DNA of 64,000 nucleotides from Nitrospirales bacterium. GTDB taxonomy: Bacteria > Nitrospirota > Nitrospiria > Nitrospirales > UBA8639. The position numbers and the translations under genes were made by a program. The stretch is taken from the NCBI GenBank assembly GCA_963555755.3, contig OY820905.2:320001-384000 (forward strand), written 5' to 3'. Below the pieces are notes generated by a model. It saw only the letters and a list, made by a program, of their open reading frames with translations, had not been told where the DNA came from and did not search any database. This document shows positions 3,658-46,579 of this stretch, piece after piece (positions within the stretch are counted from its first letter, which is position 1; each line of letters starts with the position of its first letter).

Positions 3658-3664
3658 CAATGAT

Positions 3665-3813
3665 GGGGGCAAGGCTTGAATTCACACATTAACTTCCTTC
3701 TGGTCTGCCCTATGACGTGGGAGCAATCGGTGTGTGGAAAAGTTGAGGTAGACCCTGGAGCTCGATTTGCGTGTGCCCATGGCTCAAAAGGTATTCACTT
3801 ACAACCTGACCCC
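3665..3813. repeat. ~150-bp mini-element copy A (GGGGxCAAG...ACAACCTGACCCC)
   Basis: Shares TTAACTTCCTTCTGG, GGAGCTCGA and CAAAAGGTATT blocks with four other copies; short terminal inverted repeats. Confidence 0.85.
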
Positions 3814-3849
3814 TTAACTATAAAAAGTTTTATACCAAGGGAGGTAAAT

Positions 3850-5076
3850 ATGCGTACCAAGTTGATGGCCATCATAGTTTTAACTGCAACGCAATTTTTT
3901 ATATCATCACCTGTGTTCTCAAAAGAAAACGATTTTACAACTCTTCGTGTGGCTTTATATCCCTATGTTCCCAATCGGCATTCCTTATTTCATAAAGTTG
4001 AAAAGATATTCGAGAGTCGTAATCCAGGTGTCAACCTGGAGTTAGTTGAAGATTCGGCTCTCCTCGAGAAATATTACTCAGGAGGGTTACAGAAAACAGT
4101 TGCCGATGTTTATGAAGTAGACACTATACTTTTATCCGATCTGATTAAGTCAGGAAAGATTTCACCTATTAAGCTTCCCAGCGGCTCATTTACGAAAGAA
4201 GCAATTGCTGCTGTGACTAGACACGGTGATGTTTACGGTGTTCCTCATTGGCTATGCGGGAATTTTCTCATTTATAAGAAGGGTGATATAGAAATTGAAA
4301 GTTCAAAAACCTGGAAAGATTTAAACGAGGTTCTAAAAAAACGGAATGAAAGTGTATTTGTTGATTTTAAGGGAAAATCAACCTTAGGAGAATGGTACCT
4401 TACAGCTTTGTCAGGACAGCAAGGGCTAGAGCAAGCGCAGAAGCACGTTTTAGAATCTGAAGAATTAGATGAACAAGCTGTTAGTTCTCTAGCTTCAATG
4501 TTGAAATCCTGTCCTGCGGGCTTTTGTCGTAATGATGATCTTCATGATCGTGCTGGTTATTATTCAAGGGCATTTATAGCAGGAAAGTCTAGCGGTTATG
4601 TTGGATATTCTGAATCAATTCACTATGGAATTCAGTATGCCATAGATAATTGCACGAAAACCTCAAGCTGTTTGTCAATAGATGACATTGCTGTTCGTAG
4701 GCTTCCTGGATTTTCGGAACGTTCGGTGAATGAAGGTATCGGGTGGGTCGATGCGTTAGCCACAGATTCAAGCCTGGATGCTAAAAAGAAAATTTTAGCC
4801 ACAAAGTTTATTGAATTTATGGTGTCTGAGGAAGCATATAAAGTAATTTTAGAGCCTGAATGGGGAGAAGCACCCAGATATTTAATTCCAGCACAAACAG
4901 GTATCAATATACAGAACGCGCCGTTATATGGTTCATTCTATGAAGCTCATTCTGGGAGGGCCACGGGAACATTGGTAGGGCTAAATAATAAGTTACGCGC
5001 AATGGGGAAGAAACTAAATTGTGAACTACCAATTAGCAGAACTGATATTGTTACATTAGAACAGTGTACTCCCTAA
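3850..5076 (+). CDS. Thiaminase I (thiamine pyridinylase)-like secreted protein
   Basis: Signal peptide; TLRVALYPYVP, YGVPHWLCGN (catalytic Cys) and YVGYSES (catalytic Glu) match thiaminase I motifs; RBS GGAGG; truncated attC start GCCTAAC at 5081. Confidence 0.75.
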   Translation: MRTKLMAIIVLTATQFFISSPVFSKENDFTTLRVALYPYVPNRHSLFHKVEKIFESRNPGVNLELVEDSALLEKYYSGGLQKTVADVYEVDTILLSDLIKSGKISPIKLPSGSFTKEAIAAVTRHGDVYGVPHWLCGNFLIYKKGDIEIESSKTWKDLNEVLKKRNESVFVDFKGKSTLGEWYLTALSGQQGLEQAQKHVLESEELDEQAVSSLASMLKSCPAGFCRNDDLHDRAGYYSRAFIAGKSSGYVGYSESIHYGIQYAIDNCTKTSSCLSIDDIAVRRLPGFSERSVNEGIGWVDALATDSSLDAKKKILATKFIEFMVSEEAYKVILEPEWGEAPRYLIPAQTGINIQNAPLYGSFYEAHSGRATGTLVGLNNKLRAMGKKLNCELPISRTDIVTLEQCTP

Positions 5077-5168
5077 AAATGCCTAACAAGACAAATTAAC
5101 TCGAAAAAGGTGGCGCTACCATTTTTCAATCTTCACGAAGCCACTTCAAGACCATCTTCGACAGAGAA

Positions 5169-5318
5169 GGGGTCAAGTATTGACTGCATACATTAACTTC
5201 CTTCTGGTCGGCTGCGATGACGTGGGATCAATCGGTGTGTGGGAAAGTTGAAGTAGACCCTGGAGCTCGATACGCGTGTGGCCATGGGTCAAAAGGTATT
5301 CACTCACAACCTGACCCC
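5169..5318. repeat. Mini-element copy B
   Basis: GGGGTCAAGTATTGAC...ACAACCTGACCCC. Confidence 0.85.
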
Positions 5319-5319
5319 T

Positions 5320-5493
5320 TCATCGTGCCACACCTTTCGCCATTCATTTGCCACGCATCTGCTGGAAGGCGGCTACGATATCAGGACAGTGCAAGAACTG
5401 CTGGGCCATCGCGACGTCAAAACGACCATGATCTATACTCATGTTCTCAATCGTGGGGCAGCTGGAGTCCGCAGTCCGCTGGATGGGTTGTGA
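5320..5493 (+). pseudogene. intI: Integron integrase 3' fragment
   Basis: [44 protein letters not shown]; 5' part replaced by the mini-element. Confidence 0.9.
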
Positions 5494-5676
5494 GCCTATT
5501 CAAATAAGTGGCATTATCCTGATCCGCATAAGATGCCAAACTAACTGGACTCGTGGATGCAACCAATTGAAAAGACAACGATTCCGGCGTATTGTTCAGA
5601 AGGCGCGATGCGTGTTATCCGGACAGAAACTCGAAGACCCGTGCTCTTACACGGATCCATCTAAACATTGTTAGAC
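5494..5676 (+). promoter_or_regulatory. Putative attI region with Pc-like promoter, copy 1
   Basis: ~180 bp repeated three times, with homology ending at GTTA; TTGAAA-17-TATTGT at 5567-5595; GTTAGACGCCC pairs with GGGCGTCTAAC (7379-7389). Confidence 0.7.
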
Positions 5677-5704
5677 GCCCTCGTATCGTCACAGCAGGAG
5701 CGAC

Positions 5705-6604
5705 ATGGCAAAAGCATCGCTGCCACTTCCGAACGGAGCGACTGTGGAAATCGAAGGCTCCATCCATGAAGTCAAGGAACTGCTCGAGTTCTACGGAGGG
5801 CGCGCTGGAAAGGAGTCCGGTGCACCCAAGAAGCGCGCATCCAAGAAAGGGACGAAGGCTGCCGAGCCAGCAGCACCCGAGGCCAAGGGCGTGGACATCA
5901 CGGAGGTAGTTAATCTCGTCAAGAGTTGCGACGAAGCCGAGGACATTGAGGCTCGAATTCTGGACAAGAGCACCCAGGTCGCTCGCGTTCTGCTTCCGCT
6001 CTATATGGTCCATGAGTACTTGGAGAACGCGCATGCCTTGTCATCGGGCGACGTTGCTGCAATTACAACTCAATTGAGCGTTCCAGTGGCTCAGCCGAAC
6101 GCTTCAAGAACGCTGTCAGGTACTGCGTCCAAGTACGTCATCGGCGACACCTCTCGGAAGAAGGGAGCTGCAGTCCGGTACAAGCTCAACAGGAGAGGTG
6201 TCAAGCACCTCCAGTCTGTCATAGCCGGCGATGCCGGTTCAGTCTCGAACGAAGCCACTGGCCACTCGACCCGAAAGAAAATACCGAAGAAGGCTGTCGA
6301 GAAGACTGGACCGAAGAAAAAACCCGCGAAACCGAAAGCGGCAAAGAAGCGAGCCTCCCGATCCTCAACAAAGGGAAGCAAGACCCGGCGCCCTGCCCCG
6401 GGCGAGATGCTAAGGGAACTTGTCGCAGGGGGATTTTTTCCCAAGTCGCGAACAATCAACGCAATCCAAGAACACGCCCAGCACAACCTTGCTCATACGT
6501 ATGGAGTCAACGAACTATCCACTCCGCTACGCCGCGACATTCACAATAACCTCCTAGTCAGGACAAAGAACTCCGATGGCCAGTACGAATACGCCGGGTC
6601 CTAG
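5705..6604 (+). CDS. Cassette gene 1 of 2: Lys-rich, probably DNA-binding hypothetical protein
   Basis: RBS AGGAG; wHTH-like segments separated by KKxAxK linkers; overlaps the next gene. Confidence 0.65.
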   Translation: MAKASLPLPNGATVEIEGSIHEVKELLEFYGGRAGKESGAPKKRASKKGTKAAEPAAPEAKGVDITEVVNLVKSCDEAEDIEARILDKSTQVARVLLPLYMVHEYLENAHALSSGDVAAITTQLSVPVAQPNASRTLSGTASKYVIGDTSRKKGAAVRYKLNRRGVKHLQSVIAGDAGSVSNEATGHSTRKKIPKKAVEKTGPKKKPAKPKAAKKRASRSSTKGSKTRRPAPGEMLRELVAGGFFPKSRTINAIQEHAQHNLAHTYGVNELSTPLRRDIHNNLLVRTKNSDGQYEYAGS

Positions 6605-7388
6605 TTCTGGCCTAGAAAGTGCTCTCGAAAACGCTCCATCCAAGTTTCGGAAGAGGATCATCGAATCCTATACTGAAATTAAACGCAGGCACCGCGAAGC
6701 AGGATCGGGGTCGGGGATCGACGCGGCCGGGCTGAGCGCTGGTAAGTTTTGCGAGTCGGCCATAAGGCTACTTCAGCACGAACTGACTGGTGACAGTGTC
6801 CGCTTCGGGAAACACATTCCCAACTTCCCGGACGCTTGTCGCAAGCTGATCGTCCTCGATGCCTCGACAGGTCCGGAATCACTGCGGGTCTTGATTCCGC
6901 GAGCGCTGGTTTTCCTTAATACTATGCGTGGGAAGAGAGGAATCGGCCATGTCGGCGGAGACATCGAGGCCAATTCAATTGATCTCGCAACAATCGTACG
7001 CATGTGCGACTGGGTACTGTGCGAGCTCATTCGTGTCTACCACAACCTTCCAATCGAAGATGCTCAAGCAGTAGTTGATTCGCTTGCGACCAAGCAGCTT
7101 CAGGACATCTGGGAAATCGGCGGAAGGAAGCGAATACTTCGCACAGGCTTGAATTTTAAGCAGGAGGTTCTTCTTCTTCTCTACTCGCAGCCCGACTCAG
7201 CCGCCCTGGCCGAGGAGCTGTTCGAATGGAGCGAGCATTCGAACAGCTCCGTTTTTCGCAGAGACGTCCTCAAGCCGCTCCACAAGGCGAAGTTAATCGA
7301 ATATGACCAAGCGGAAGAGATTGCATACCTATCCCCTCTTGGCGTCATAGAAGTCGAAGAAGTTCTCGATGACCGCCCGGGCGTCTAA
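6576..7388 (+). CDS. Cassette gene 2 of 2: HEPN/Abi_C-like protein with C-terminal wHTH
   Basis: GKFCESA and MRGKRGIGHVGG (R-x-H) motifs; stop codon lies in the attC R'' GTCTAAC. Confidence 0.6.
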   Translation: MASTNTPGPSSGLESALENAPSKFRKRIIESYTEIKRRHREAGSGSGIDAAGLSAGKFCESAIRLLQHELTGDSVRFGKHIPNFPDACRKLIVLDASTGPESLRVLIPRALVFLNTMRGKRGIGHVGGDIEANSIDLATIVRMCDWVLCELIRVYHNLPIEDAQAVVDSLATKQLQDIWEIGGRKRILRTGLNFKQEVLLLLYSQPDSAALAEELFEWSEHSNSSVFRRDVLKPLHKAKLIEYDQAEEIAYLSPLGVIEVEEVLDDRPGV

Positions 7389-7430
7389 CACGAGCTTGCA
7401 GTCGGACTGGGCAACAGCCAGGCGTTACGA
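7383..7430 (+). other. Truncated or degenerate attC
   Basis: R'' GTCTAAC present; right arm short and degenerate just before the mini-element/IS junction. Confidence 0.5.
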
Positions 7431-7468
7431 CCTTTGGTAGTAAGGGAATAAGGGGGTCAAGATAAGGG

Positions 7469-9372
7469 CAGGGCCATTTCATTCTTTTTATAAGCAAGGG
7501 ATTCCATGAGGTTTTTTGTGCCCTCTTTTTCAGGGCAGGGCCATGCGGATGGCTAAATGGGGCTTGCCCCAGAGCAGTCTACACGCCTGCGCGATATTGG
7601 TGTAGCCTTTCAGGCGTAAGAGACTGATGGCATAGCGTCTCAGACAGGTCATGACCATTGGGCCATTGAGACTTCGTATCTGACTCCTGTCTTCATCAAA
7701 GGTGACGTCCAACACATAATGCTGCTTATTCTCCACACTCCAATGCTTTCGGTTTTGCGAGAGGATGGTCTTCGGCCCCGCCTTGTCTTTGGACTGACTC
7801 GTGACACCGCAGACCGCTTCGACGGTCGTGAGGCCCTGCTTGAGATGCGTCACTTCCCTCTCAATGCAGAAGACTTGCTGGACATGAGGAAAGTTGACAT
7901 AGGCATTCAGGGAGTCATCGCACCAGATCCTGCGGGTCGTGATCTGCCCATGGCCTTTCTCGGTGGTGGCATAATCGCACCGGCGTGCTCGCAACGCTAA
8001 GGCCTCAATGTCGTGCTTCAAGGTGGGCTGGTTTCCCTTGACGGTGAAGACGAAGTCGGCGCCGCGTTCGTGCACCAGGTACTCGGCAATCTCTTTCTGG
8101 GTGAGGAGCGCATCCGCCGTGATCACCTTCCCTGCGATCTCGAGCGCATCTAACAGGGGCCGCACGCAGGGGATCTCATTGGTCTTGGAGTGAACTTTTT
8201 TTGGGTGAGGTGGCGCCCGGCTTGATGGGTGACGGCGCTGAGGACGTGGGGCTGTTCGCTTGGGACCTTCGACGTCCCCCGCATGGTCTTCCCATCAATG
8301 GCAATGCCCTGATCCTCCCCGCCGAAGGTGTCCAGCCACCGGCCGAGCAGGGTATCGACTTCACAGGGGTCGACGGCCGTGATAAAGCGGTAAAGAGTGC
8401 TGCGGCTCGGGACGAGGTAGCGCCCCCCTCGCTGAGTACAGCCTAGCCGCTTGCGCATCGGCTGCGATAACTGCTGGGCCCAGTCCGAGATCGCTTCATA
8501 GCCGCGCGCGCCGCACAAGGTGGCACAGAACATGATCGCCGTGAGGGCGCGTCGGGTGTGCCGTTGCCCTTGCAAATGGCGGGGATCGGTCAGCTGCACC
8601 ACATACGTAAAGAGGGAGTCCGTCTGTTTTGTATTCAATCTCATCTGAGGCGCTTCTCCTTTCTGATAGGGCTGATCAAGCATCGGGCGTGCAAGGATCT
8701 CTCGGGCTTGGGGATGCAGCCGCACGACTAGGATGCGCTTCGGTCTCTCATGCTGAACATAACACGTGTTCGACTTGCGAAACCCTCGTGTCAGACCGAG
8801 CTCGTGCCACCCGGCGGCCCGATAGCAGGTCCCGGTGAAGCGGGCAGGATCGACGAAGGTCTCTAAGAGGAGCAAGGGGTAGCCGTGGTACAGTTGCCAA
8901 TCGGCCGAGATCCGTTTCGCGCAGAGCGACAGGACTTTCGAGGCGAGGTTCTTTTGCGAACAGCCCGGCAGCATGAGAAACCGGGTGTTGTTGGCCAGTA
9001 AATGGAGTCGTTGCCATTGAAAACAGGGGGGCCAGCCGATCCAGTGGTCTCGCGGTCTCGATTTGAGGGCCGCCGCCGCAAACACCAGCAAGGCCAGCCA
9101 GCGATCCTGCACACAGGCGAGATATTGTATCGATTGGCCAATCAGCGGGGCATGACCGAGGTAGTGGTGTCTGTCGAGAAGGGTCTTGAAGGCGTCCTTT
9201 TCGTCTCGGACAATTGGGCGAACCACGACTTGCCTCAGATCAATGTCCGGCTGTCCGCTTGGCGATTCGTCTGGCATGCAAAAGAGTATGCCGTAAACGA
9301 AAAGAAAAAGCCAGCCTAAATCGATTATTCCTTATTATCTATAAAGTTACACTTTAATATGAAATAGCCCTG
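7469..9372 (-). mobile_element. ISAs1-family IS, copy 1 (DUF4338-fused transposase; ORFs 8150-9277 and 7530-8165)
   Basis: CAGGGC(C/T)ATTTCAT IRs; 9-bp TSD AGATAAGGG (7460-7468 / 9373-9381); IAIDGKT, TADAL, VKGNQ, HWSVEN and FDED motifs. Confidence 0.92.
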
Positions 9373-9378
9373 AGATAA

Positions 9379-9528
9379 GGGTGGCAATTCTTGACTTCAT
9401 ATATTAACTTCCTTCTGGTCGGCCCGCGGACGTGGGCGCAATCGTTGTGTGAGAAAGTTGATGTAGAGTCTGGAGCTCGATACGCGTGTGGCCATGGGTC
9501 AAAAGGTATTAACTCACAACCTCACCCC
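9379..9528. repeat. Mini-element copy C
   Basis: Aligns with copies A and B; left end adjoins the ISAs1 insertion. Confidence 0.8.
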
Positions 9529-9529
9529 T

Positions 9530-9713
9530 TAACTATTCAAATAGGTGGGATTACCCGGATCCGCATAAGATGCCAAAATAATTGGACTCGTAGACGTAAC
9601 CAATTGAAAAGACAACGATTCTGGCGTATTGTTCAGAAGACTCGCTGCGTGTTATCCGGACAGAAACTCGAAGACCCGTGCTCTTACACGGATTCATTTA
9701 AACACTGTTATGC
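9530..9713 (+). promoter_or_regulatory. Putative attI region with Pc-like promoter, copy 2
   Basis: TTGAAA-17-TATTGT at 9604-9632; ends in GTTATGC, which pairs with GCATAAC at 10316. Confidence 0.7.
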
Positions 9714-9743
9714 CTCCTCAATTAAAAACCAGGGAGCGATTCT

Positions 9744-10313
9744 ATGAGAACAATTAGATTGTTGATTATCGTCATCGCAGTAAGCAATGCCAACACGGCT
9801 ATAGCGCAGCAAATCCCACCACCCGTTGACCTCGGTATTCAGAACATTCTCCAAGAAACGGAAGTCTGGTGCTGGGCGGCCGTAGCTCAACAAATAATAC
9901 TCGCCTTAAACGGACCTCAGGGTACGCCACCACAATGCGCGATGGTTGCTATAGCTAATAACGCAAACCCTCAAATCTGCTGCCAAATACCGCAACAGTG
10001 CCTGGTCGGAGGTAGTCTTCAACAGATACAAGGTCTAATTGCACATTTCGGTGGGCACTATTCAGCCATTGCTCCGCCAGCAGATCCCATGACTATATAT
10101 AACTCGCTAGCATCGGGGAAGGCGATAATTATGGCAGTACGGTCTAGTCCTTTTAGTGGTCACGTCATTGTAATACGCGGGATGCAATGGGTTCCAACCC
10201 AGTTTGGCTTCCAGCCGGTACTACATATAAACGATCCAATGTCGTTTTTTACGCAACCAGTACCATTTCAGAATATCGTTGGATATTGGCAAGCGGCGAT
10301 AGTCGTTCACTAG
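9744..10313 (+). CDS. Secreted papain-like (C39/AvrRpt2-like) cysteine peptidase cassette
   Basis: Signal peptide; QETEVWCWAA, GHVIVI and INDP motifs. Confidence 0.7.
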   Translation: MRTIRLLIIVIAVSNANTAIAQQIPPPVDLGIQNILQETEVWCWAAVAQQIILALNGPQGTPPQCAMVAIANNANPQICCQIPQQCLVGGSLQQIQGLIAHFGGHYSAIAPPADPMTIYNSLASGKAIIMAVRSSPFSGHVIVIRGMQWVPTQFGFQPVLHINDPMSFFTQPVPFQNIVGYWQAAIVVH

Positions 10314-10315
10314 AT

Positions 10316-10428
10316 GCATAACAAATCGTTCAACGCGGACGCTAGATGCATAACAAATCGTTCAACGCGGACGCTTGACTGTGGCTTGCCGTTTGCTGCG
10401 GCTTCGGTCGGCCTCAATCAAGCGCCGG
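10316..10428 (+). other. Truncated attC with a 32-bp tandem duplication of its left arm
   Basis: CTAGATGCATAACAAATCGTTCAACGCGGACG occurs twice; resembles attC 13264-13362 but lacks R'. Confidence 0.7.
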
Positions 10429-10451
10429 AAAGGTGAGGGGGCAATAAGGGG

Positions 10452-12355
10452 CAGGGCTATTTCATATTAAAGTGTAACTTTATAGATAATAAGGAATAAT
10501 CGATTTAGGCTGGCTTTTTCTTTTCGTTTACGGCATACTCTTTTGCATGCCAGACGAATCGCCAAGCGGACAGCCGGACATTGATCTGAGGCAAGTCGTG
10601 GTTCGCCCAATTGTCCGAGACGAAAAGGACGCCTTCAAGACCCTTCTCGACAGACACCACTACCTCGGTCATGCCCCGCTGATTGGCCAATCGATACAAT
10701 ATCTCGCCTGTGTGCAGGATCGCTGGCTGGCCTTGCTGGTGTTTGCGGCGGCGGCCCTCAAATCGAGACCGCGAGACCACTGGATCGGCTGGCCCCCCTG
10801 TTTTCAATGGCAACGACTCCATTTACTGGCCAACAACACCCGGTTTCTCATGCTGCCGGGCTGTTCGCAAAAGAACCTCGCCTCGAAAGTCCTGTCGCTC
10901 TGCGCGAAACGGATCTCGTCCGATTGGCAACTGTACCACGGCTACCCCTTGCTCCTCTTAGAGACCTTCGTCGATCCTGCCCGCTTCACCGGGACCTGCT
11001 ATCGGGCCGCCGGGTGGCACGAGCTCGGTCTGACACGAGGGTTTCGCAAGTCGAACACGTGTTATGTTCAGCATGAGAGACCGAAGCGCATCCTAGTCGT
11101 GCGGCTGCATCCCCAAGCCCGAGAGATCCTTGCACGCCCGATGCTTGATCAGCCCTATCAGAAAGGAGAAGCGCCTCAGATGAGATTGAATACAAAACAG
11201 ACGGACTCCCTCTTTACGTATGTGGTGCAGCTGACCGATCCCCGCCATTTGCAAGGGCAACGGCACACCCGACGCGCCCTCACGGCGATCATGTTCTGTG
11301 CCACCTTGTGCGGCGCGCGCGGCTATGAAGCGATCTCGGACTGGGCCCAGCAGTTATCGCAGCCGATGCGCAAGCGGCTAGGCTGTACTCAGCGAGGGGG
11401 GCGCTACCTCGTCCCGAGCCGCAGCACTCTTTACCGCTTTATCACGGCCGTCGACCCCTGTGAAGTCGATACCCTGCTCGGCCGGTGGCTGGACACCTTC
11501 GGCGGGGAGGATCAGGGCATTGCCATTGATGGGAAGACCATGCGGGGGACGTCGAAGGTCCCAAGCGAACAGCCCCACGTCCTCAGCGCCGTCACCCATC
11601 AAGCCGGGCGCCACCTCACCCAAAAAAAGTTCACTCCAAGACCAATGAGATCCCCTGCGTGCGGCCCCTGTTAGATGCGCTCGAGATCGCAGGGAAGGTG
11701 ATCACGGCGGATGCGCTCCTCACCCAGAAAGAGATTGCCGAGTACCTGGTGCACGAACGCGGCGCCGACTTCGTCTTCACCGTCAAGGGAAACCAGCCCA
11801 CCTTGAAGCACGACATTGAGGCCTTAGCGTTGCGAGCACGCCGGTGCGATTATGCCACCACCGAGAAAGGCCATGGGCAGATCACGACCCGCAGGATCTG
11901 GTGCGATGACTCCCTGAATGCCTATGTCAACTTTCCTCATGTCCAGCAAGTCTTCTGCATTGAGAGGGAAGTGACGCATCTCAAGCAGGGCCTCACGACC
12001 GTCGAAGCGGTCTGCGGTGTCACGAGTCAGTCCAAAGACAAGGCGGGGCCGAAGACCATCCTCTCGCAAAACCGAAAGCATTGGAGTGTGGAGAATAAGC
12101 AGCATTATGTGTTGGACGTCACCTTTGATGAAGACAGGAGTCAGATACGAAGTCTCAATGGCCCAATGGTCATGACCTGTCTGAGACGCTATGCCATCAG
12201 TCTCTTACGCCTGAAAGGCTACACCAATATCGCGCAGGCGTGTAGACTGCTCTGGGGCAAGCCCCATTTAGCCATCCGCATGGCCCTGCCCTGAAAAAGA
12301 GGGCACAAAAAACCTCATGGAATCCCTTGCTTATAAAAAGAATGAAATGGCCCTG
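10452..12355 (+). mobile_element. ISAs1-family IS, copy 2 (ORFs 10547-11674 and 11659-12294)
   Basis: Near-identical to copy 1 but inverted; 10-bp TSD CAATAAGGGG (10442-10451 / 12356-12365). Confidence 0.92.
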
Positions 12356-12362
12356 CAATAAG

Positions 12363-12511
12363 GGGGGACAAGTCTTGACTTCATATATTAACTTCCTTCT
12401 GGCCTACCGCATGACGTGAGATCAAACGGTTTTTGGGAGAGTCGAGGGAGACCCTGGAGCTTTATACGCCTGTGGCCATGGGCCAAAAAGTATTAACTCA
12501 CAACCTGACCC
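12363..12511. repeat. Mini-element copy D
   Basis: GGGGGACAAGTCTTGAC...ACAACCTGACCC. Confidence 0.8.
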
Positions 12512-12663
12512 ATTCATTTGCCAGGCATCTGCTGGAAGGCGGCAACGATATCAAGACAGTACAAGAACTGCTGGGTCATCGAGATATGAAAACCACAATT
12601 ATCTCCACCCATGTTCTCAATCGTGGGGCAGCTGGAGTCCGCAGTCCGCTGGATGGGTTGTGA
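12511..12663 (+). pseudogene. intI: Integron integrase 3' fragment with catalytic Tyr lost
   Basis: [43 protein letters not shown] has become ISTH. Confidence 0.85.
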
Positions 12664-12846
12664 GCCTATTCAAATAAGTGGCATTATCCTGATCCGCATA
12701 AGATGCCAAACTAACTGGACTCGTGGATGCAACCAATTGAAAAGACCCCGGTTCTGGCGTATTGTTCAGAAGACTCGATGCGTGTTATGCGGACAGAAAC
12801 TCGAAGACCCGTGCTCTTACACGGATCCATCTAAACATTGTTAGGT
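12664..12846 (+). promoter_or_regulatory. Putative attI region with Pc-like promoter, copy 3
   Basis: Nearly identical to 5494-5676; GTTAGGTTTCA pairs with TGAAACCTAAC (13260-13270). Confidence 0.7.
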
Positions 12847-12866
12847 TTCAGCGGAAGATCTTATCG

Positions 12867-13262
12867 GTGCTTGCTCCGAATCAATTTCAGGTTAACGAAG
12901 CTTGGATCGCGTTCAAGCTAAATGACGCTCCGATTTCCATACAGGAAGATGGCGACTTTAACGTTCTGGCTCTAATGGATGCAGCGAGTTGCTTCATTCT
13001 AGGCACAGAGTTAGTGCCCGCAGATTCGACAGAACCATCTCAATTGGAGTCCATGCGATTGCTGAAGGGTGGGCAATCTCATAAAGATCAATTGCCGAAA
13101 AAACTCTTAATTCCAAACAAGCAAATTGCAGATATACTGACAAGAGAAGCCGAGCGGATCGGCATCGTCGTAGTTCGTGTTCCAGAAGAGCAGCTTTTGG
13201 CGTTCATAGATGAAGCACGTGAGGGATTTCAGGAGCACGTAAATGGGGGCCGGACGCACTGA
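12867..13262 (+). CDS. Cassette hypothetical protein
   Basis: GTG start after the recombination point; stop codon abuts the attC. Confidence 0.65.
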   Translation: MLAPNQFQVNEAWIAFKLNDAPISIQEDGDFNVLALMDAASCFILGTELVPADSTEPSQLESMRLLKGGQSHKDQLPKKLLIPNKQIADILTREAERIGIVVVRVPEEQLLAFIDEAREGFQEHVNGGRTH

Positions 13263-13263
13263 A

Positions 13264-13362
13264 ACCTAACAAGCGCGATCGAGACCGACGCTTGGCTGCG
13301 CCCTTCCTTCGCTACCGCTTCGGTCGATTGCAATCAAGCGCGGCTCATCGCGGACGTTAGGC
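13264..13362 (+). other. attC site
   Basis: R'' ACCTAAC, R' GTTAGGC; CGCGATCGAG/CTCATCGCG arms. Confidence 0.85.
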
Positions 13363-13428
13363 TGCATAGCCCACCCTATTCGTGAAGTTACTTGCCCGCC
13401 CGAGGAGGAAAGTCGAAATATGATTTCA

Positions 13429-14440
13429 TATGCCTTCCCATTTGACTAAGGTTAGTCCCTAGACTAGTCTGCTGGACTATGGACACAGGGTATGCTGCTG
13501 ATATCTTGGATTTTTCTGTTAGGTTCCACACCGAAGAAGCGTGCTTCGAGTACTTGCGGGCGATTCGGTGGCCAGACGGGTTTATGTGTCCAGCTTGCGG
13601 TCATCGCGGTGGTTGGTGGCTCAAAAAATATTTCCGGTTTGAGTGTTCGTCGTGTCATAGACAGACATCACCGCTAAGCGGCACAGTGATGCATAGATCG
13701 CACTTGCCGCTACGGCTTTGGTTTTGGGCTGCCTATTTCGTCTCCACGCACACACCTGGCATCAGTGCTGTGCAATTGCAGCGTCAACTCAGTATCAAGA
13801 AGGTGGATAGCGCCTGGTATTTGCTCCACAGATTGCGACGAGGAATGGTACGACAGAACCGTGAACGGCTCGCAGGAACAGTTGAAGCCGATGAAACCCA
13901 TATCGGTGGACCGGTAAAAGGCAAAACGGGCCGTGGCGTCGCGAAAGCGAAAACCAAGACGTTAATAGCCGGAGCCGTAGAAATTGTCACGTACACACAA
14001 GGGGATCACTTTCGAGAGAAAGCAGGGCGTTTACGATTAGCGATTCTTCAAGACGCTGGAGAGAACGAGATCAAAGCATTCCTCAATAGCCATGTCGCTG
14101 AGGGCAGTAAGATCAAGTCCGATGGTTGGAAGGGATACTCGGCAAAAGCCTTGGCAGGATACGAACACCTGAGACGGACCCAGGGTGACCCAGCAAGTGC
14201 TGGGAAGCACGCTCCACACATCCATAGAGCGTTCGGCAATCTGCAGACCTGGCTGAACGGGATTCACCATGGAGTGGATTCAAAATACCTGCAACACTAT
14301 CTTGATGAGTTTGTCTTTCGCTATAACCGCCGTGAGACTCCAATGAGTACCTTCCAGAGTTTGTTGAAAATCCTGACCAGCAGCTCAAAACCCTTGGGAT
14401 TCAATAAACTGAAGCAACCTTAGTTAAATGGGAAGGCATA
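13429..14440 (+). mobile_element. IS1595-family IS (transposase 13479-14423)
   Basis: 24/25-bp IR TATGCCTTCCCATTT(G/A)ACTAAGGTT; 8-bp TSD TGATTTCA; Zn ribbon CPAC/CSSC, VEADET, SDG and YLDEFVFRYNRR motifs. Confidence 0.93.
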
Positions 14441-15171
14441 TGATTTCAAATCCCAGGATACTCAGAGTGCGACCCCCTTTACAGCGAGGTACTGTGTTGT
14501 TGCCAACTCGCGAAACGATGCTCCTGATTAGCCGCGCATGCCTTGCGACGGCATTGCTCGTGATGATGGCCGCCTTGGGTCAGTCGGTTCACGCCACAGG
14601 CGGAAGTCAGACGAGGTTTCAGCGCATTTCGACGCAGTTCATCGCAGCATTGGGTACTCCAGGTGCAACCTCCGGGAGCGGCGCGCAGTCGTGGGGTCTC
14701 TGGCCTCTGGATCCGGGCCCTCGTGGAGTGAGGTTGAGCAGCTTTGAGCAGTTAGAGGAGGCGGGTGGAGTGGCCCCCGCACGCTGGAAATTCGACCACA
14801 CAGACTGGTGGCTGGAGGAACACGGCTTAATAATGGAGCAGCCGAGATTTCCGATCCCTCCTGGCAAATACCTGGTCACGGGTAACCGCGAGGTCACGAC
14901 CGTGCTGACCATTCATCCCGCTGACAAGGATGGAAATAGGCGCTGGGAGCTCGATGACCACGCGACGCTCTATGACGTGACGCACTTGGGCTGCCGCTCC
15001 GCGCGGTATACACCGATGACCGGTGACGGTTCGTGTTCTCCGGTAAACGTGCAGAAGACTGCGTTTCCGGTCACTCCAGGGGGGACGATGCCTACAGTCG
15101 AGGGCTGCAAGAAGCAAGACTATGCGGTTCTCTTCGTGATCGCTGTGGTAGTGAAAAACGAAGGTCGGTGA
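14440..15171 (+). CDS. Cassette secreted hypothetical protein (cut off from its native RBS by the IS1595)
   Basis: Original GAGGAGG...ATGATTTCA at 13402-13428; ATG regenerated at 14440; followed by an attC. Confidence 0.7.
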   Translation: MISNPRILRVRPPLQRGTVLLPTRETMLLISRACLATALLVMMAALGQSVHATGGSQTRFQRISTQFIAALGTPGATSGSGAQSWGLWPLDPGPRGVRLSSFEQLEEAGGVAPARWKFDHTDWWLEEHGLIMEQPRFPIPPGKYLVTGNREVTTVLTIHPADKDGNRRWELDDHATLYDVTHLGCRSARYTPMTGDGSCSPVNVQKTAFPVTPGGTMPTVEGCKKQDYAVLFVIAVVVKNEGR

Positions 15172-15205
15172 TGCCGGCAAGATTCGTAGCGTATAGCGAG
15201 ATGTC

Positions 15206-15278
15206 GCCCAACAAGCGCAGGCAGTCGAGCAAACCACTCGCTACGCTTGCGGTCTGCCGCTGAGGCGTTGCGTTAGAT
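15206..15278 (+). other. attC site
   Basis: R'' GCCCAAC, R' GTTAGAT; GGCAG/CTGCC arms. Confidence 0.7.
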
Positions 15279-15307
15279 GTCACACGCGACTAAAGGGCTA
15301 ACTCGAT

Positions 15308-16182
15308 ATGGAACAAACGACAGAATTTCGAGAGATTACTGCGAATTCGGAATCACAGCAGCCAGGCCTAAGCTTCCTGCTGACGTTCATAAGGGCACCT
15401 CTAAAAACCGTCCTTTTCCGTGATGGCGGCGTCAGTCGCGTGCTCACATCCTCATGTATTCGCCCATACACTCCGGTTTTCCGCGCGCGGCTTCCTTGCC
15501 CTCACAAAAAATGCCTGGTTTTTAGAGGTGCCCACAACATGTAACCTGCTCTGTGCGACAATTTTTCAGGTTCTGAGTCATATACCTCCGTGGAAAGAGG
15601 ATTCACCGATCGAGGATTTTACAGGAGGCATCCTCTGGATGCTGAGCTTAACTTGCCTGCTGATTGCATGTCGTTACACATCCTCTAAGATCGAGGCTGA
15701 TTTTTTGGCTGATGTCATGTGCTGCCCTTTCTGTACTGGCGATGGATGAGATATTTGCATTCCACGAACGTCCCGAACAACAGGGATTATTCAACGACGA
15801 CTATTTTAAGGTAATTTGCTGGCTCGCGACGGCCTTCGTATTCCGCCTTGTCTTCCGCATGGAGGAGCCTTCTCTTACTGCCAGGCGTGCCATATTCACA
15901 GGCTATCTGTTCCATAGCCTGTATATTTTGGTTGAGCTAGGGGATGGGGAGTTTTTTCGAATACCTTTTCTATCGATACATCTTCTTAAGTGGTCGGAGG
16001 AATTTTTCGAACTCTTTTTCCTGGTGTCATACCTGTTAGCTTTTGTCCTTATCCACATGAGCCATAGTAATGATAAAGAGAGAGTCGGCCAGAGGGAAAC
16101 TTACCTAAATCCTGCACTAGATATGAATGCACTGCGTTCGGATCGGCATTGTGTCTCGAAGGGGTTCGACGGATTGGTCTAG
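15308..16182 (+). pseudogene. Cassette membrane-protein gene interrupted by a MITE and frameshifted
   Basis: Hydrophobic coding pieces in three frames (15308-15392, ~15534-15700, 15664-16182 with LAMDEIFAFHE). Confidence 0.55.
15393..15533. mobile_element. 141-bp MITE, copy 1
   Basis: 17-bp IR GGGCACCTCTAAAAACC; three near-identical copies in the window. Confidence 0.9.
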
Positions 16183-16244
16183 AGAGCCCGGACATGGTGG
16201 AGTTACTCGAGAATGAGCTTACGATCGAAGGTAAACCATAAGCC

Positions 16245-16332
16245 TTCTCACAACCGCATGGAGCGGCCACAGTATGCACAAAGTGCCTGAAGTGAAACGG
16301 CAGCCGCGTGCCGCTCATGCGGGACATTAGAC
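16245..16332 (+). other. Degenerate attC
   Basis: CCGCATGGAGCGGC/GCCGCTCATGCGG arms intact; cores mutated (TTCTCAC, ATTAGAC). Confidence 0.6.
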
Positions 16333-16365
16333 CACATCCGTGACCTGCAGAGGAGGTTCAAGACG

Positions 16366-17316
16366 ATGACCAGCTTGCGAACTTTTCACCGTGTACTCCT
16401 TCTATTCGCGCTGGTGCTCTTCAGCGTTGCGTCAACAGTCTTTGCCCAGGCTAGTCGGACAGTATCGATTCACCAACTAAGCGACGATTACGGTTTCCCG
16501 TACGGTGGCACTCAGTCCATGAATCTTAGTGGCTTCGTGGGATACAAGGGACGTCTCTTTATCGTGGGTGACAAAGGACTTGATCGAAGTCTCTATGAGA
16601 TTCGTAAGGAGGGAACGCAGTGGCGCATCATTTCCCGGGTTCCCCTAAAATTCAGTAGTCCGTCTGATTTGGAAGGGGCATTCTACTCTGCCACCGGGTT
16701 GTTTCTGGTAAACGAGAGCCAGCAGCGCGTGTACTGGTTTGATTTCGATGGAAACAGTGCGAAACGGCGACGATTGACGATTGATTTCCCTCAGTCAATG
16801 AATTCGGAGAATTGGGGTAATGCAGGATTGGAGGGCGTTGCGTACGATGATGAACGTGGCCTTCTATATCTTGCAAAAGAGCGATCGCCACGAGCAATAC
16901 TGGTTTTCGCTGTAAAGGAATCAGACGGATCCAGTGCGTTCATAAAGCAGTTTGACATACGACCTCCAGCCGGTGCTTCGGGCACGCATAGCTTTTCAGA
17001 TCTGTATTTCGAGAACGGTTTTCTCTATGCGCTGGAACGACGTTCATTGTCAGTCGCAAAAATCGACACAGTAACCGAACAAGTCGTCGGCCGCCTCGAT
17101 TTCAGCTGCATCATCGATACGAATGGTGGCCTCTACGATGGTGATCCCAATAGATACGGGTTAGCGGAGGCCTTGTTGCTCACATCTGACATGGTCCTCA
17201 TCGGACTCGACAACAACGGGAAGCCGATCAACGATGCTAACAAGTTCGCGCAGCGTTTCAATCTGAATGGCACGCAGCCGACTATTTTGCAGGTTCCCAG
17301 GCCTGCGGGCTTCTAA
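16366..17316 (+). CDS. Secreted beta-propeller protein (SdiA-regulated/phytase-like)
   Basis: RBS GAGGAGG, signal peptide; NLSG, DLEG, NAGLEGVAYD, LYLAKER and LYALER motifs. Confidence 0.7.
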   Translation: MTSLRTFHRVLLLFALVLFSVASTVFAQASRTVSIHQLSDDYGFPYGGTQSMNLSGFVGYKGRLFIVGDKGLDRSLYEIRKEGTQWRIISRVPLKFSSPSDLEGAFYSATGLFLVNESQQRVYWFDFDGNSAKRRRLTIDFPQSMNSENWGNAGLEGVAYDDERGLLYLAKERSPRAILVFAVKESDGSSAFIKQFDIRPPAGASGTHSFSDLYFENGFLYALERRSLSVAKIDTVTEQVVGRLDFSCIIDTNGGLYDGDPNRYGLAEALLLTSDMVLIGLDNNGKPINDANKFAQRFNLNGTQPTILQVPRPAGF

Positions 17317-17720
17317 GGGCTCGCGCAAGAATAACTTCCCATTTTGGGGTGACGAGACACCTGTCTGGCAAGGCGCGAGGACTGCGCATACTCTTGGTAT
17401 GTAAGGGACGAGCAACGCCGCCAGACAGGATGGATCGACGCTCAAAGATGGGAAGTTATTCTTGCGCGAGCCCTAAGGCTGGGATGAGGGGGCAACCTAT
17501 TAGACGGCTCTGGTTAAGTGGACACACGGCTCCGCTCTTTTTCTCTATGCTTCTTAAATCCTGGCTTCTTAAAAAGGGGACGCTACCCTTTTTCGACCCT
17601 TTTGGGGCGAGGTTCATTGTGGATGGCCAGGATATTTCAGCACTGCTCATTGAAAAAAGCCTCGCCGTACCCTGTGACGGGGGGATGAAGACCAATGATT
17701 GGTGTGAATAAGGAGGATGA

Positions 17721-17979
17721 CATGCAAAACCAAATTAAAATTTTAATTTTTTTATCTGAGAGTAATAACGGTAGATGCACGTATGCGGAATTTAAAAGGT
17801 TCGATAATGACCCGACCCACCACTTAGCCACATTTTTACTAGACCTGATTTTCACCGGCAAGGTCCAGGATAATACGGGCACCGATGAATATATTTTGAC
17901 CGATGAAGGGAAAACGTATCTCGTAGAATTACAAACGTTGTCTGTTTTGTCCAAAAGTGTGTCCCAAAAAAGTAAATAA
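17721..17979 (+). CDS. Small hypothetical protein
   Basis: RBS AAGGAGG before MQNQIK; wHTH-like tail YILTDEGKTYL. Confidence 0.5.
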
Positions 17980-18252
17980 AAAGCCCCAGGGCTCCGAAGA
18001 ATCCTGAGGCTTGAGTCGAACGCTACACATGGACGGGATGAGCCTAGCAGATCGGGGTTGTCAATCCGAGGGTATTCTTCTGGTCGTGCGGTGTAGCAAG
18101 GGGGGAGGAGGGTGAGGGTTTCCTCTATGCAGGGAAACACCACACGAAAAGATGGGGTCAGACTCGATTAAACACAAAGACGTCGAGTACCGTTAACCAA
18201 AAGGCATTTACCCAAAATCCGCGCGAACTTTTTTCGCAAAAGGTTCAAGCCC

Positions 18253-18894
18253 ATGTCATCACCAACCCGAGGGATACTTTATCGAATTTTCGATTGGCTG
18301 AATCGCCTCATCTGTCGTGTCTTGTATAAGGTTCGCCCACCATCAGGGTCGCCCCTGCCTGAAAGTGGCCCTGTGCTCTTGGTCTCCGATCACTCTTCCT
18401 ACAGCGATCCGATGGTGTTGGCGGCTACCGCTGGTCGCCCGATTATTTTCCTCACTGCCAGAGAGATTTATCATCGTCCCTTTCTGGGATGGTTTTGCAA
18501 GACGGTCCGGTATATACCGGTGCGCCGGGACGTTCAGGATGTCGGGGCGGTGCGGGCCATGCTCCGGGCTTTAAGCCAGGGCGAGGTTGTTGCCCTCTTT
18601 CCGGAAGGGGGCATTGACGAATATCGGGAAGAGCGTGGACATTTGGGAATTGGATATTTGGCGTTGAAAACGGCGGCCCCCGTGGTGCCGGCTTCCATTG
18701 TATGGGACCAAGCCAGTCCCCTCACTCTGGGGCGAAGTCTTTGTACCCCTCGGAAAGCAACGGTCCGCTATAGCGCGCCGATTTTATTCCCATCTCTCGC
18801 ACACCCTGATCGTGAACACATTGAGCAGGCCACCGCCAGAATCATGGATGCCCTTCGTGCCCTCAGAGATTCCCAGACCTCCACTCTTTGCTAA
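18253..18894 (+). CDS. Lysophospholipid acyltransferase (PlsC-like)
   Basis: HSSYSD (HxxxxD) and FPEGG motifs. Confidence 0.85.
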   Translation: MSSPTRGILYRIFDWLNRLICRVLYKVRPPSGSPLPESGPVLLVSDHSSYSDPMVLAATAGRPIIFLTAREIYHRPFLGWFCKTVRYIPVRRDVQDVGAVRAMLRALSQGEVVALFPEGGIDEYREERGHLGIGYLALKTAAPVVPASIVWDQASPLTLGRSLCTPRKATVRYSAPILFPSLAHPDREHIEQATARIMDALRALRDSQTSTLC

Positions 18895-19001
18895 GCAACT
18901 GTTGCTCTCCCTCCGTAGGGGTCAACCTTCTTTTGTGGGACAGGTCTCATGTTTTGCACGCGAATGACTCGGAAATATAAACCGAAAAAGAGAAAAGGGT
19001 C

Positions 19002-19117
19002 TTCTCCCAAGTGAGTGGGTAAATTTGGGCGAGTCATGTCCTGAAAGGCTTGCTGGAGAAGAGGTTGGTGGGTTTTTCGACCGTGGGAAAAGTGGCCAGG
19101 CTTTCTTGAGGCTTCAC
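19002..19117. repeat. 116-bp dispersed repeat, copy 1
   Basis: Aligns without gaps to 32219-32334. Confidence 0.8.
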
Positions 19118-19131
19118 AAGGCAACGATCTC

Positions 19132-19521
19132 TTGGTGAGATACAGGGGGCTCGATAGTCCGGGGATCAGCAGAAGGATTATGCAACGAATTGTCGGAGCG
19201 TGTGATAAATATGAGTATTTCAACGTTTTGGTACTTGGTTACTTCGAAAACTCAGTACCTACGTTTGAGAATTATGACCTGTCCGCGATGTTCACAGAAG
19301 TAGGCTTTACCTGGAAACATCGATTGGCGTGGGTTGACCAGAATTCAAGCACCTATGATAGCATTCATTTTGCGGAACCAGTCTTGTCAAATCGTGGATT
19401 TTCGGCACGTCTTTTCCGGGAAGTTGAAGATGCAACACAATGGCTTCTTCGCGACACTACTGATTCACATAACCATTCGCTCAACCGGACGCCTGAAGGC
19501 GATGGTTCGCTCGCACGTTAG
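19132..19521 (+). pseudogene. 5'-truncated cassette gene reading into an attC
   Basis: SpoIIAA-like tail ARLFREVEDATQWL; begins right after the 116-bp repeat. Confidence 0.45.
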
Positions 19522-19523
19522 GG
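19467..19523 (+). other. Short degenerate attC
   Basis: R'' ACATAAC, R' GTTAGGG; AACC..CGCC/GGCG..GGTT hairpin. Confidence 0.55.
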
Positions 19524-19553
19524 CTATAGGGAAATCATGACGTGAATACTACA

Positions 19554-19694
19554 GGGCACCTCTAAAAACCGTCTTTTTCTGTGATGGCGGCGTCAGCCGC
19601 GTGCACAAATCCTCATGTATTCGCCCATACACTCCGGTTTTCCGCGCGCGGCTTCCTTGCCCTCACAAAAAATGCCTGGTTTTTAGAGGTGCCC
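19554..19694. mobile_element. 141-bp MITE, copy 2
   Basis: Same IR; flanked by a TACA direct repeat. Confidence 0.9.
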
Positions 19695-19749
19695 TACAGA
19701 GCAATTCTCCATTGATGCATGAATTGGAATAAGAATTGAACTAGGGAAA

Positions 19750-19909
19750 GGGGTCAAGAAAGAGTCCAGACTTGACTTAATACTTTAACTTCCTTCTGGT
19801 CGCTTCGATGACATGGGCGCAATCGGTGTGTGAGAAAGTTGAGGTAGATTCTGAAGTTCGAACCGCGTGTGGCCATGGCTCAAAAGGTATTCACTCACAA
19901 CCTGCCCCC
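19750..19909. repeat. Mini-element copy E
   Basis: GGGGTCAAG...ACAACCTGCCCCC; last copy, at the right edge of the cassette region. Confidence 0.8.
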
Positions 19910-24224: not shown

Positions 24225-24360
24225 GGCATGCTTTTTTGAACATTCCCTCCCACTGACGATGCGTGGCTCATCTGGAGCTTTTTGGGGCTGTTGGAGTGCA
24301 ATATTCAACAGGCCCATATTGGACGAGTTGTACGTAGGAGAGGTTGCCTACTTGATTTAT

Positions 24361-24501
24361 GGGCACCTCTAAAAACCGTCCTTTTCCGTGATGGCGGCGT
24401 CAGCCGCGTGCTCAAATCCTCATGTATTCGCCCATACACTCCGGTTTTCCGCGCGCGGCTTCCTTGCCCTCACAAAAAATGCCTGGTTTTTAGAGGTGCC
24501 C
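24361..24501. mobile_element. 141-bp MITE, copy 3
   Basis: Same IR and body as copies 1 and 2. Confidence 0.9.
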
Positions 24502-24701
24502 TTAACTGTAAAAACAAATTTCCCTTGATCTGTTTTTACCTTTCACAATGATTGTTGAGCAAAAATGGTCGTTGGGGTTACTGGATGTCGGAATACAAGA
24601 GGACGGAGAAATTCGACAATTACTGAAAGATCGATGGGTGGTTCGTGGAAATTTTGTTGCGCTGCTGTTACACCTACCGTACACTCGATTGCAGGTCTAC
24701 T

Positions 24702-37511: not shown

Positions 37512-38414
37512 GTGCAACGTAACTCGGGTGTTCTGGAGACGATAGCCCAGATATGTGTTGGAGGGGTATGGCTGGCCGTATTGTTCAGTGTGGGGTTAGC
37601 TTTTGGCCAATCTTTACCAAGGTTCATTCATCAACCGGGGGAGTTTTTTCCTGATCAAGCCGGCAATGAATGGCGCTATCAAGGCCGAATTGTTGAAGGG
37701 GCCGTGAATCAAATCGCCGATAAAACCTTTGTGAATATTTCTACTGTGACCGGGAAGGAAACGATTGATGGCGTCAATGTGACAGTCTTTCATGATTCCA
37801 ATCCTGGGAACCAAGGCTCCACGGATAGTTATTATCTGCGGGATGCGGCAGGCATTCGTTATTATGGATCGAAGCCTGGTACCCGGCTAGAAAAACAATT
37901 GGTGCCGTATCAGATTATCCGATTTCCCTTGGAAATCCCGAGCTCTTTTGAGCAACTGCATCGAACGAATTTAAATCTCGGATTAGACCTTGATCATGAT
38001 GGCCAAGCGGAAAAAGTGGATGTATTTGCGACCGTGACCCTTCATGGCCAGGAAACTATTACTGTCCCTGCTGGGACCTATGAGAATGCCGTCCGGATGG
38101 AATCGAAAATGAAACTCTTGGTGCATTTGTCGGGTGCTGGGACGCAGGTGAAAGGTTTCGATTCTATGACGGTGTGGTTTGTGAAAGATGTCGGGTTGGT
38201 GAAATATTCTGAGCGGCAAATGATTCCCAACCCTCGCACGGGAAAAGATCGATTAATAGAAATAACCGAAGAGTTGCAAGAGGCAACATTGCAGGGTGGC
38301 ACACAACTATTGAGTGGGCGCAAAGCCTCGACGCATAGTGTTCTCACTCGTCACACGTTGGACCATGAATTGTTGCAAGTACCCTTCCCCTCCCGCCTTG
38401 GTGCCCACCCCTGA
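37512..38414 (+). CDS. Secreted hypothetical beta-rich protein
   Basis: Signal peptide; ETITVPAGTY and WFVKDVGLVK motifs. Confidence 0.7.
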   Translation: MQRNSGVLETIAQICVGGVWLAVLFSVGLAFGQSLPRFIHQPGEFFPDQAGNEWRYQGRIVEGAVNQIADKTFVNISTVTGKETIDGVNVTVFHDSNPGNQGSTDSYYLRDAAGIRYYGSKPGTRLEKQLVPYQIIRFPLEIPSSFEQLHRTNLNLGLDLDHDGQAEKVDVFATVTLHGQETITVPAGTYENAVRMESKMKLLVHLSGAGTQVKGFDSMTVWFVKDVGLVKYSERQMIPNPRTGKDRLIEITEELQEATLQGGTQLLSGRKASTHSVLTRHTLDHELLQVPFPSRLGAHP

Positions 38415-38500
38415 AAGTCGATGTCCGCCAAAGGGCTGCCGTCCAACTAATGATCCGGTGATGGGGCGGTTGATGTAGAAATTTCCCACATCAAAATGAC
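38307..38500 (-). pseudogene. putA: 3' stub of a P5C dehydrogenase / PutA gene
   Basis: FDVGNFYINRPITGSLVGRQPFGGHRLSGVGTKAGG...ENTMRRGFAP; upstream part absent from the window. Confidence 0.8.
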
Positions 38501-39519: not shown

Positions 39520-39793
39520 ACGCAGGTGAGAGGTTTCGATTCTATGACGGTGTGGTTTGTGAAAGATGTCGGGTTGGTGAAATATTCTGAGCGGCAAATG
39601 ATTCCTAACCCGCGAACGGGAAAAGATCGATTAATTGAAATAACCGAAGAATTGCAAGAGGCAACATTGCAAGGTGGCACACAACTATTGAGTCGGCGCA
39701 AAGCCTCGACGCATAGTGTTCTCACTCGTCACACGTTGGACCATGAATTGTTGCAAGTACCCTTCCCCTCCCGCCTTGGCGCCCACCCCTGAA
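39520..39793 (+). repeat. 274-bp direct repeat of 38142-38415
   Basis: Near-identical copy at offset 1378. Confidence 0.9.
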
Positions 39794-39842: not shown

Positions 39843-40133
39843 GAGGAGCAGTTGCAGCATCAAATGTATTTGGGCTCCGAGGCCTTCATCTGCCAGGCTC
39901 AAAAACGGCCCCGCGCGACCCAGGATCTATCCGAGGTCCCTCGGGTGCATCGACGCTCTCCTCAGAAACCCTTGACGTGGTATGTCCAGACCAGCCGCAA
40001 CTCTTATCGTGGGATAGCCCATGCGTATGCTTCTGGGGGATACACGCTAAAGGAAATTGGTGAGTACTTTGCGGTCCATTACAGTAGGGTCAGTCGAGTG
40101 GCAAAGCGAGTGGAGGGAGAGAAGCTGGCTTGA
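39843..40133 (+). pseudogene. C-terminal remnant of a REP-associated tyrosine transposase (RAYT-like, HTH tail)
   Basis: EQLQHQMYLGSEAF and GYTLKEIGEYFAVHYSRVSR; followed by TTGCAAGACCT(A/G)ACCCC repeats. Confidence 0.7.
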
Positions 40134-40155
40134 TGTGGCATTGCAAGACCTAACC

Positions 40156-46562: not shown

Positions 46563-46579
46563 CCGGCACCGCTTCCTCA

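Follow-up and report, generated by a model that had tools for sequence, protein, structure and literature searches.

The window analysed here is a 64,000-nucleotide stretch from a Nitrospirales bacterium (GenBank assembly GCA_963555755.3, contig OY820905.2, positions 320,001 to 384,000; G000:C1:320001-384000 in our numbering) that carries integron gene cassettes together with five copies of a repeat of 149–150 bp. As a previous examination of the letters without database searches (the sequence-only reading) had reported, the five copies are co-oriented; we place them on the plus strand and find them 72.5–88.6% identical in pairwise comparison. All five are matched by nhmmer at E 1e-44 or better, whereas the shuffled genome gave one match at E 0.36. 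Copy 1 (3665..3813) is bordered by 4-base tails, TGAT (3661-3664) and TTAA (3814-3817), and copy 2 (5169..5318) by AGAA (5165-5168) and TTCA (5319-5322). The right tail TTAA (9529-9532) of copy 3 (9380..9528) leads directly into an attI-like platform (9533-9713). Copy 4 occupies 12364..12512, and copy 5 lies at 19761-19909 (19750..19909 with its duplicated left-end word at 19750-19756), with a TfoX-family gene downstream. Insertion sequences (ISs) of ISAs1 type interrupt the left ends of copy 3 (7469..9372, minus strand, 9-base target duplication) and copy 4 (10452..12355, plus strand, 10-base target duplication); a scar of copy 3, the duplicated left-end word GGGGTCAAG (7453..7461, plus strand), is separated from it by the first of these. 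Only copy 2 has both GGGGTCA ends intact, the other four of five having a decayed end. The repeats themselves are inserted without target duplication, as had been claimed: exact matches between the two flanks extend over no more than 0–1 base in 5/5 copies, whichever boundary is tested.

Comparison with intact loci indicates that the five repeats are almost certainly internally deleted, gene-less TIRtrons. In a TIRtron a tyrosine transposase gene (TIRYT; RAYT group 1, subclass 2.1) lies between long terminal inverted repeats (TIRs) that overlap the gene ends, have a GGGGWSAS-type end and belong to families repeated in the host (Di Nocera et al. 2013, PMC3733652). Read on the plus strand, each mini-TIRtron (mini) has the left inverted repeat, a leader and an ATG, after which it continues directly with the final ~32 codons and the right repeat of a TIRYT gene. 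The 3' ends of intact Y1_Tnp + Bac_DnaA_C genes in the loci of two relatives match the repeat, and the plus-strand frame of copy 2 aligns with the C-terminus, GINRCVQKLRKTIASNEHLARAQKILIQNLTP followed by the stop, of one of the proteins (L007). Against the C-terminal 40 residues of 117 homologues the plus-strand frames score 58–89, with a maximum of 40 in a 30-shuffle null; the minus-strand frames, compared with the N-terminal 40 residues, score 27–38 and stay within that null. The sequence-only reading had proposed an internally deleted derivative of a Y1_Tnp plus helix-turn-helix RAYT-family element, and the plus-strand C-terminal match bears this out. Both the end words that it quoted and the string ATGGCC..CGTATCGAGCTCCAGGG on the minus strand are indeed present, best in copy 2. 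Since only the plus-strand frames rise above the null, the RIELQG string is a chance resemblance to a RAYT N-terminus and the proposed orientation has to be reversed: the supposed minus-strand start, GGGGTCAGG, is the reverse complement of the 3' end of a gene that reads on the plus strand.

The TIRs are 26 bp long, with 20/26 positions paired in copy 2 and 15–17/26 in the other copies, and they are of the GGGGWSAS type by which TIRtrons are recognized. The right end is GGGGTCAG, while the left end is mostly GGGGTCAA, with a different eighth base, as in many intact loci. End and ATG are 47–48 bases apart in four of the five copies (copy 3 has lost its ATG) and 46–53 bases apart in 25/25 intact loci. 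The first 28 bases of the repeat match the left end of an intact TIRtron in another genome (G002), and the repeat frame runs L-T-P-stop across the right TIR, the TIR overlapping the gene ends as in a TIRtron. PF01797 and PF08299 are found in the proteins of L007 and L008 (PF08299 below the cut-off in L008), and H60, H62, Y119, N123 and P124, which form the HuH and YxxxNP motifs, are invariant in 6/6 proteins. A TTGACT box inside the repeat is followed, 17 bases on, by TAGGCT in locus L044 vs TCTGGT in the minis, which seem to carry a dead promoter. The repeat had also been called REPIN/MITE-like. In its size, TIRs and copy number it does resemble a miniature inverted-repeat transposable element (MITE), being short, non-coding, TIR-bounded and multicopy, but it lacks the target-site duplication. 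The comparison with REPINs did not hold: no stable hairpin was found in 6/6 folds of three of the five copies (z −1.3 to +1.9), and the ends show no conserved GTAG-hairpin of the kind that marks repetitive extragenic palindromes (REPs) and REPINs.

A whole-genome nhmmer search gave 26 matches at E<1 and 19 at E<1e-5, the latter made up of 17 mini loci and one longer 3' remnant of the parent gene. The description of the repeat as confined to the cassette region is correct within the window, which holds five of these loci, but not genome-wide, the other 12 of the 17 lying elsewhere. The repeat was also matched in 6/60 relatives, one genome contig and 20 metagenome contigs. Pattern matches in public collections were minis or pieces of minis in 21/21 cases and full-length elements in 0, and the fusion point, compared by eye, was the same. 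The nearest intact TIRtron with a cognate TIR is that of G002, which belongs to the same genus. What is left of the cognate gene in the host genome is a 3' remnant of 76 codons that shares 83% identity with the G002 protein; the intact TIRYTs there all have other TIRs, and 0 have the cognate TIR. The RAYT remnant at 39.8 kb that the sequence-only reading had linked to the repeat is a real TIRYT C-terminal piece (39843..40155, plus strand, ending MWHCKT-stop), but it comes from a different TIRtron family and is not the parent: it has only the outermost ~13 bases in common with the repeat and is absent from the repeat's genome-wide matches. The minis form two subfamilies, A and B, and all five window copies are of type A. 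The right halves of A and B differ at 25/87 bases, whereas the left halves, compared by eye, are almost base-for-base alike. Differences between A and the parent remnant are distributed 7/3/12 by codon position; within A the distribution is flat (25/27/25). Pairing between the right end and the left TIR involves 25/26 positions in B and 21 in A, and we suggest that A acquired its right end from a related TIRtron.

The end word TGACCCC occurs at 809 sites in the genome, 127 pairs of which lie within 120 bases of each other, compared with 5–8 pairs for four control words; 87/127 pairs have 4–6 outer bases in common. Across 59 scar clusters (four tandem or long repeats left out), 54/59 outermost copies have a pyrimidine at +5, and scar copies agree at +5 in 40/59 clusters and at +6 in 18/59. 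This pattern agrees with a boundary that follows +4 and with targets whose first base is C or T. Among mini loci whose ends could be placed by pattern, a pyrimidine is found at +5 in 13/15 distinct right flanks and a purine at −5 in 23/26 left flanks. The right tail of type A minis is TTAA or a one-base variant of it, which is the stop codon of the parent; the tails are inherited.

Several copies have changed flanks on one side. The right end of copy 1 is linked to a solute-binding/thiaminase-1-like gene (3850..5076, plus strand; Pfam PF13416, PF22141), and this combination is found with four different left flanks (in the window, L022, L026 and L030). In L022 a mini of another TIRtron family closes the right side of the same gene. 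Contigs of run X9 have a mini joined to position 18101, and the left junction of L030 likewise lies at 18100. In L024 the left flank of copy b2 is joined to the right flank of copy b1. Two type-B minis bracket 2.1 kb at G000:C1:2531843-2534239, and L024 joins the end of this segment to its start via one mini, the joint that a circle or a tandem copy would give. A duplicated gene end in the window (38142-38415 and 39520-39793, 97% identical), with a reversed TIRtron-like end adjoining at 39808-39831, is possibly another one-ended event.

Copy 2 lies in a second integron integrase gene, intI'. Directly to its left is an internal piece of this gene (5120..5164, plus strand) ending ...KPLQDHLRQ, which continues as IntI-like sequence in locus L069 of genome G006 and aligns with P0121; the piece alone gives no score against the array's own IntI. 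The right flank begins SCHTFRHSF... and consists of the intI' 3' tail (5323-5493) and an attI-like platform that ends G|TTAGAC at 5670-5676 (together 5323..5676, plus strand, partial TIGR02249 match). The two points of intI' that flank copy 2 are 80 residues apart in 55/55 motif-bearing IntI matches (of 120). A 375-letter contig of run X19 holds 115 letters from the left of copy 2 and 20 from its right, leaving 240 letters between, a figure that comes from this one contig, assumes that the 20-letter side reaches the contig end and concerns letters that were not read; run X18 has the same joint. The 80-residue spacing and the 240-letter gap therefore indicate that the 158 bases of copy 2 (mini and tails) replace 240 bases of intI'.

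Attached to the repeats in the window are three attI-like platforms, at 5494-5676, 9533-9713 and 12664-12846, the last together with an intI' 3' tail behind copy 4 (12510..12846, plus strand; TIGR02249 and platform matches), and these probably act as attI. There are three different points at which right ends of minis adjoin the intI'/attI' platform, all at +4 (copy 2, copy 3 and L038), and the cassettes that follow the platform differ in each case. The right junction of copy 4 looks like a short microhomology deletion derived from the copy-2 form. The genome has eight platforms, with different DNA after each and no mini at 5/8. In the platform loci of relatives (23 fetched from other genomes), GGGGTCA is present within 330 bases upstream in 0/19 examined. 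Orphan intI-tail/attI-like platforms (loci L073-L095) occur in 23/114 family genomes, each followed by a different gene, and in five relatives' loci a different end word of GGGG type lies immediately upstream of the platform. A role of the mini as a dedicated carrier of attI platforms is unsupported, orphan platforms being common without it, and it can be no more than one among several platform carriers. We also rejected the idea that copy 2 truncates the attC at 5081, as the two are separated by the intI' piece and a further end word. A search of plasmids found integrase tails only. Copies 3 and 4 are each preceded by an attC-like site without its 3' half, and our attC model (R1) detects seven sites in the window, none of them on a repeat copy.

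Starting from what is observed (anatomy, orientation, no target duplication, 4-base tails, pyrimidine bias, two subfamilies and one-sided flank changes), we propose, with a probability of about 0.6, that each end of a mini was joined separately by a TIRYT acting in trans; mobilization of the minis in trans is plausible. In this model the cuts, presumably made by the TIRYT itself, would fall 4 bases beyond TGACCCC at either end, and each cut end would be joined, independently of the other, to a new site starting with a pyrimidine. TnpA-REP cuts at C|T, leaving a 3'-OH and a 5'-phosphotyrosine (PMC8266576). If this chemistry extends to TIRYT, the 3'-OH may lie on the element end and the 5'-phosphotyrosine on the target, although the sequences are just as compatible with the opposite strand. 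Flanking DNA would then be deleted, duplicated or carried along on insertion, and the flanks do appear to fit separate end-joining better than clean insertion. An extension that we regard as tentative and rather doubtful is that minis captured an integrase tail and attI platform and planted them thrice in the array, each taking its own cassettes, and that a cassette gene was carried between positions. The copies are probably mostly inactive now, because all that remains of the cognate gene here is a 3' remnant, and one end is decayed in four of the five copies.

Several points weigh against separate end-joining. No full-length parent with the leader of the mini was found (one genome-contig and 20 metagenome matches, 301 genomes) by a scan whose pattern needed the leader word, so that a parent with another −10 box would escape it. 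Most of the scars counted belong to other TIRtron families of the genome, whose T-rich tails (TTTT in 23/59) make the boundary less sharp. Flanks of the minis are partly dependent on each other (scars, IS duplications, related strains), and left flanks are purine-rich anyway. The right tail TTCA of copy 2 could partly be derived from the target, and the 240-letter figure has its single-contig basis. No circle, precise empty site or raw-read joint was seen in these data, which are contigs only, and whole-element insertion followed by deletion gives the same end state.

The last point is central to a serious though less probable alternative, a MITE-like history in which the whole unit was inserted precisely without duplication and the one-sided changes arose later via deletions, ISs or homologous recombination between copies. 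Seventeen loci with a both-ended architecture and one common deletion junction indicate a unit copied whole many times; recombination between copies is evident from the A/B mosaic and from L024, and the region is crowded with other mobile elements. However, the new junctions lie at +4 next to a pyrimidine rather than at random, the L030/X9 left junction at 18100 has no window mini as recombination partner, and the contigs do not contain the precise empty site. It is unlikely that the copies go back to one or two old insertions and were carried along passively as segmental duplication, or IntI shuffling of a unit of mini, intI' tail and attI', multiplied them. The same platform does follow copies 2, 3 and 4, the copy 4 junction being derived from that of copy 2, and platforms without a mini are common (5/8 in the genome, 19/19 of the relatives' loci examined). 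Yet minis 2, 3 and 4 are less alike (79–88%) than their platforms (90–96%), the three +4 platform junctions are separate, and copies 1 and 5 are joined at +4 to unrelated right flanks.

Taken literally, the sequence-only reading describes a REPIN-like hairpin on the minus strand that starts with a RAYT N-terminus and derives from the 39.8-kb element. The end words resemble that remnant over ~13 bases and target duplications are lacking, but with minus-strand frames inside the null, no hairpin and no match between remnant and repeat, we consider this model very improbable. Less credible still is descent from a DDE family, Tn3-like or similar, as a MITE with GGGG ends. The TIRs do start with GGGG; against this, the interior is TIRYT coding sequence, and neither clear target-site duplications (5/5 copies) nor a DDE IS parent (genome-wide matches of the repeat), the two findings named beforehand as speaking against a RAYT origin, was encountered.

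The gene for the array's integron integrase ends just upstream of the window, runs in the same direction as the cassettes and matches its family model from position 28. Its frame (L001:6998-7880; G000:C1:318997-319880) lacks the N-terminus, which an IS has apparently cut off, and is distinct from the array's intI' tails. The attC covariance model was built from the seven window sites, which it recovers by construction, and finds six more in the genome (150/584 candidates scored). Orientation relative to GC skew was uninformative. The two ISAs1-type ISs are near-identical and landed independently in copies 3 and 4, each in the left end; the genome has more than 30 near-identical copies of the IS, which show no general preference for TIRtron ends, and the first open reading frame of the IS encodes a DruA-like domain. 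An IS4-family element of 1469 bp is present at 40156-41624 and 41677-43145. Of its 21 genome copies, 20 have inserted into the TIRtron end word AGACCTGACC (≤2 mismatches) and are flanked by a 10-base duplication; one of these 20 lies in the end of a type-B mini. Targeting of REPs by ISs has reportedly been published (PMC1525189); a literature search on that subject found no mention of IS targeting of TIRtron ends. A separate MITE-like repeat of 149 bp (15390-15538, 19551-19699 and 24358-24506), very abundant in run contigs, has landed inside the left TIR of the mini in L010, L034 and L035. An IS1595-family element (13418-14451) just after an attC is absent from L026 and three runs. The window also contains a cassette gene (9744-10313) that weakly matches Peptidase_C70 (papain-like), another abundant inverted-repeat element with 43-bp arms and many different flanks in run contigs (17313-17477), and large repeat-protein genes (43461-52515 and 57789-59996) with 114–117-base and 243-base units and four tandem gene units of ~613 bases.

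If separate end-joining is correct, integron gene cassettes could be rearranged without the integron's own integrase. In the more doubtful extension given above, this would amount to a second, IntI-independent layer of shuffling on the integron, with TIRtron ends acting as HUH joining sites that work independently and move host DNA. The junctions predict a cut 4 bases outside TGACCCC, a pyrimidine target and one end at a time; the minis offer a 150-base substrate, and an intact enzyme with the cognate TIR exists in the same-genus genome. The mini itself is an ordinary, probably fossil, derivative. Fixed ends joined to variable sites, carriage of neighbouring DNA and lack of target duplication are also features of one-ended rolling-circle capture by IS91 and ISCR elements. 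Unlike these, which have Y2 enzymes and distinct ori and ter, the parent is a PF01797 Y1 element with symmetric inverted ends, both apparently active.

The TIRtron is an already named kind of element, to which the minis add unusually informative junctions. They are like the TIRtron/TIRYT elements of PMC3733652 in the gene between TIRs, the GGGG-type ends and the repeated families, but differ from the TIRs reported in the available text of that paper (single, dimeric and grouped) in being start-to-end deletion derivatives; their left end, moreover, is mostly GGGGTCAA vs the GGGGWSAS-type end of the TIRtron. The same text gives no cut site, target rule or mechanism. TIRYTs have been equated with TnpA-Y1 subclass 2.1 (PMC6006769) and RAYT group 1 (PMC5581495). 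We tentatively assign the parents to subclass 2.1 (more narrowly 2.1.2) by domain content, and like the members of these groups they have HuH, YxxxNP and a Bac_DnaA_C-like tail and no REP-like hairpins. TIRYTs are the second largest Y1 subclass, found in 14.9% of strains (PMC6006769), and RAYT group 1 has the highest duplication rate of the true RAYTs, 6.3% (Bertels et al. 2017, PMC5581495). In its available text, Quentin et al. 2018 (PMC6006769) describes no non-autonomous derivatives, with 0 occurrences of 'MITE' or 'non-autonomous'. The TIRYT work found in our literature search is computational, with no bench study and no link to integrons (supplements, with possible lists of TIR families, were outside its scope). 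Bacterial MITEs are defined by a length of 70–300 bp, TIRs of 15–30 bp and no coding capacity (PMC3733652); the minis are unlike them in lacking a target duplication and in having an HUH parent. A parallel in chemistry would be with REP and REPIN sequences and TnpA-REP of groups 2 and 3, as far as described in PMC8266576: HUH chemistry (inferred for the minis), cleavage outside the motif, strand transfer elsewhere and a pyrimidine after the cut. In contrast to REPs and REPINs, the minis have no GTAG foot or hairpin, and their cut is apparently fixed at +4 instead of falling at any nearby CT.

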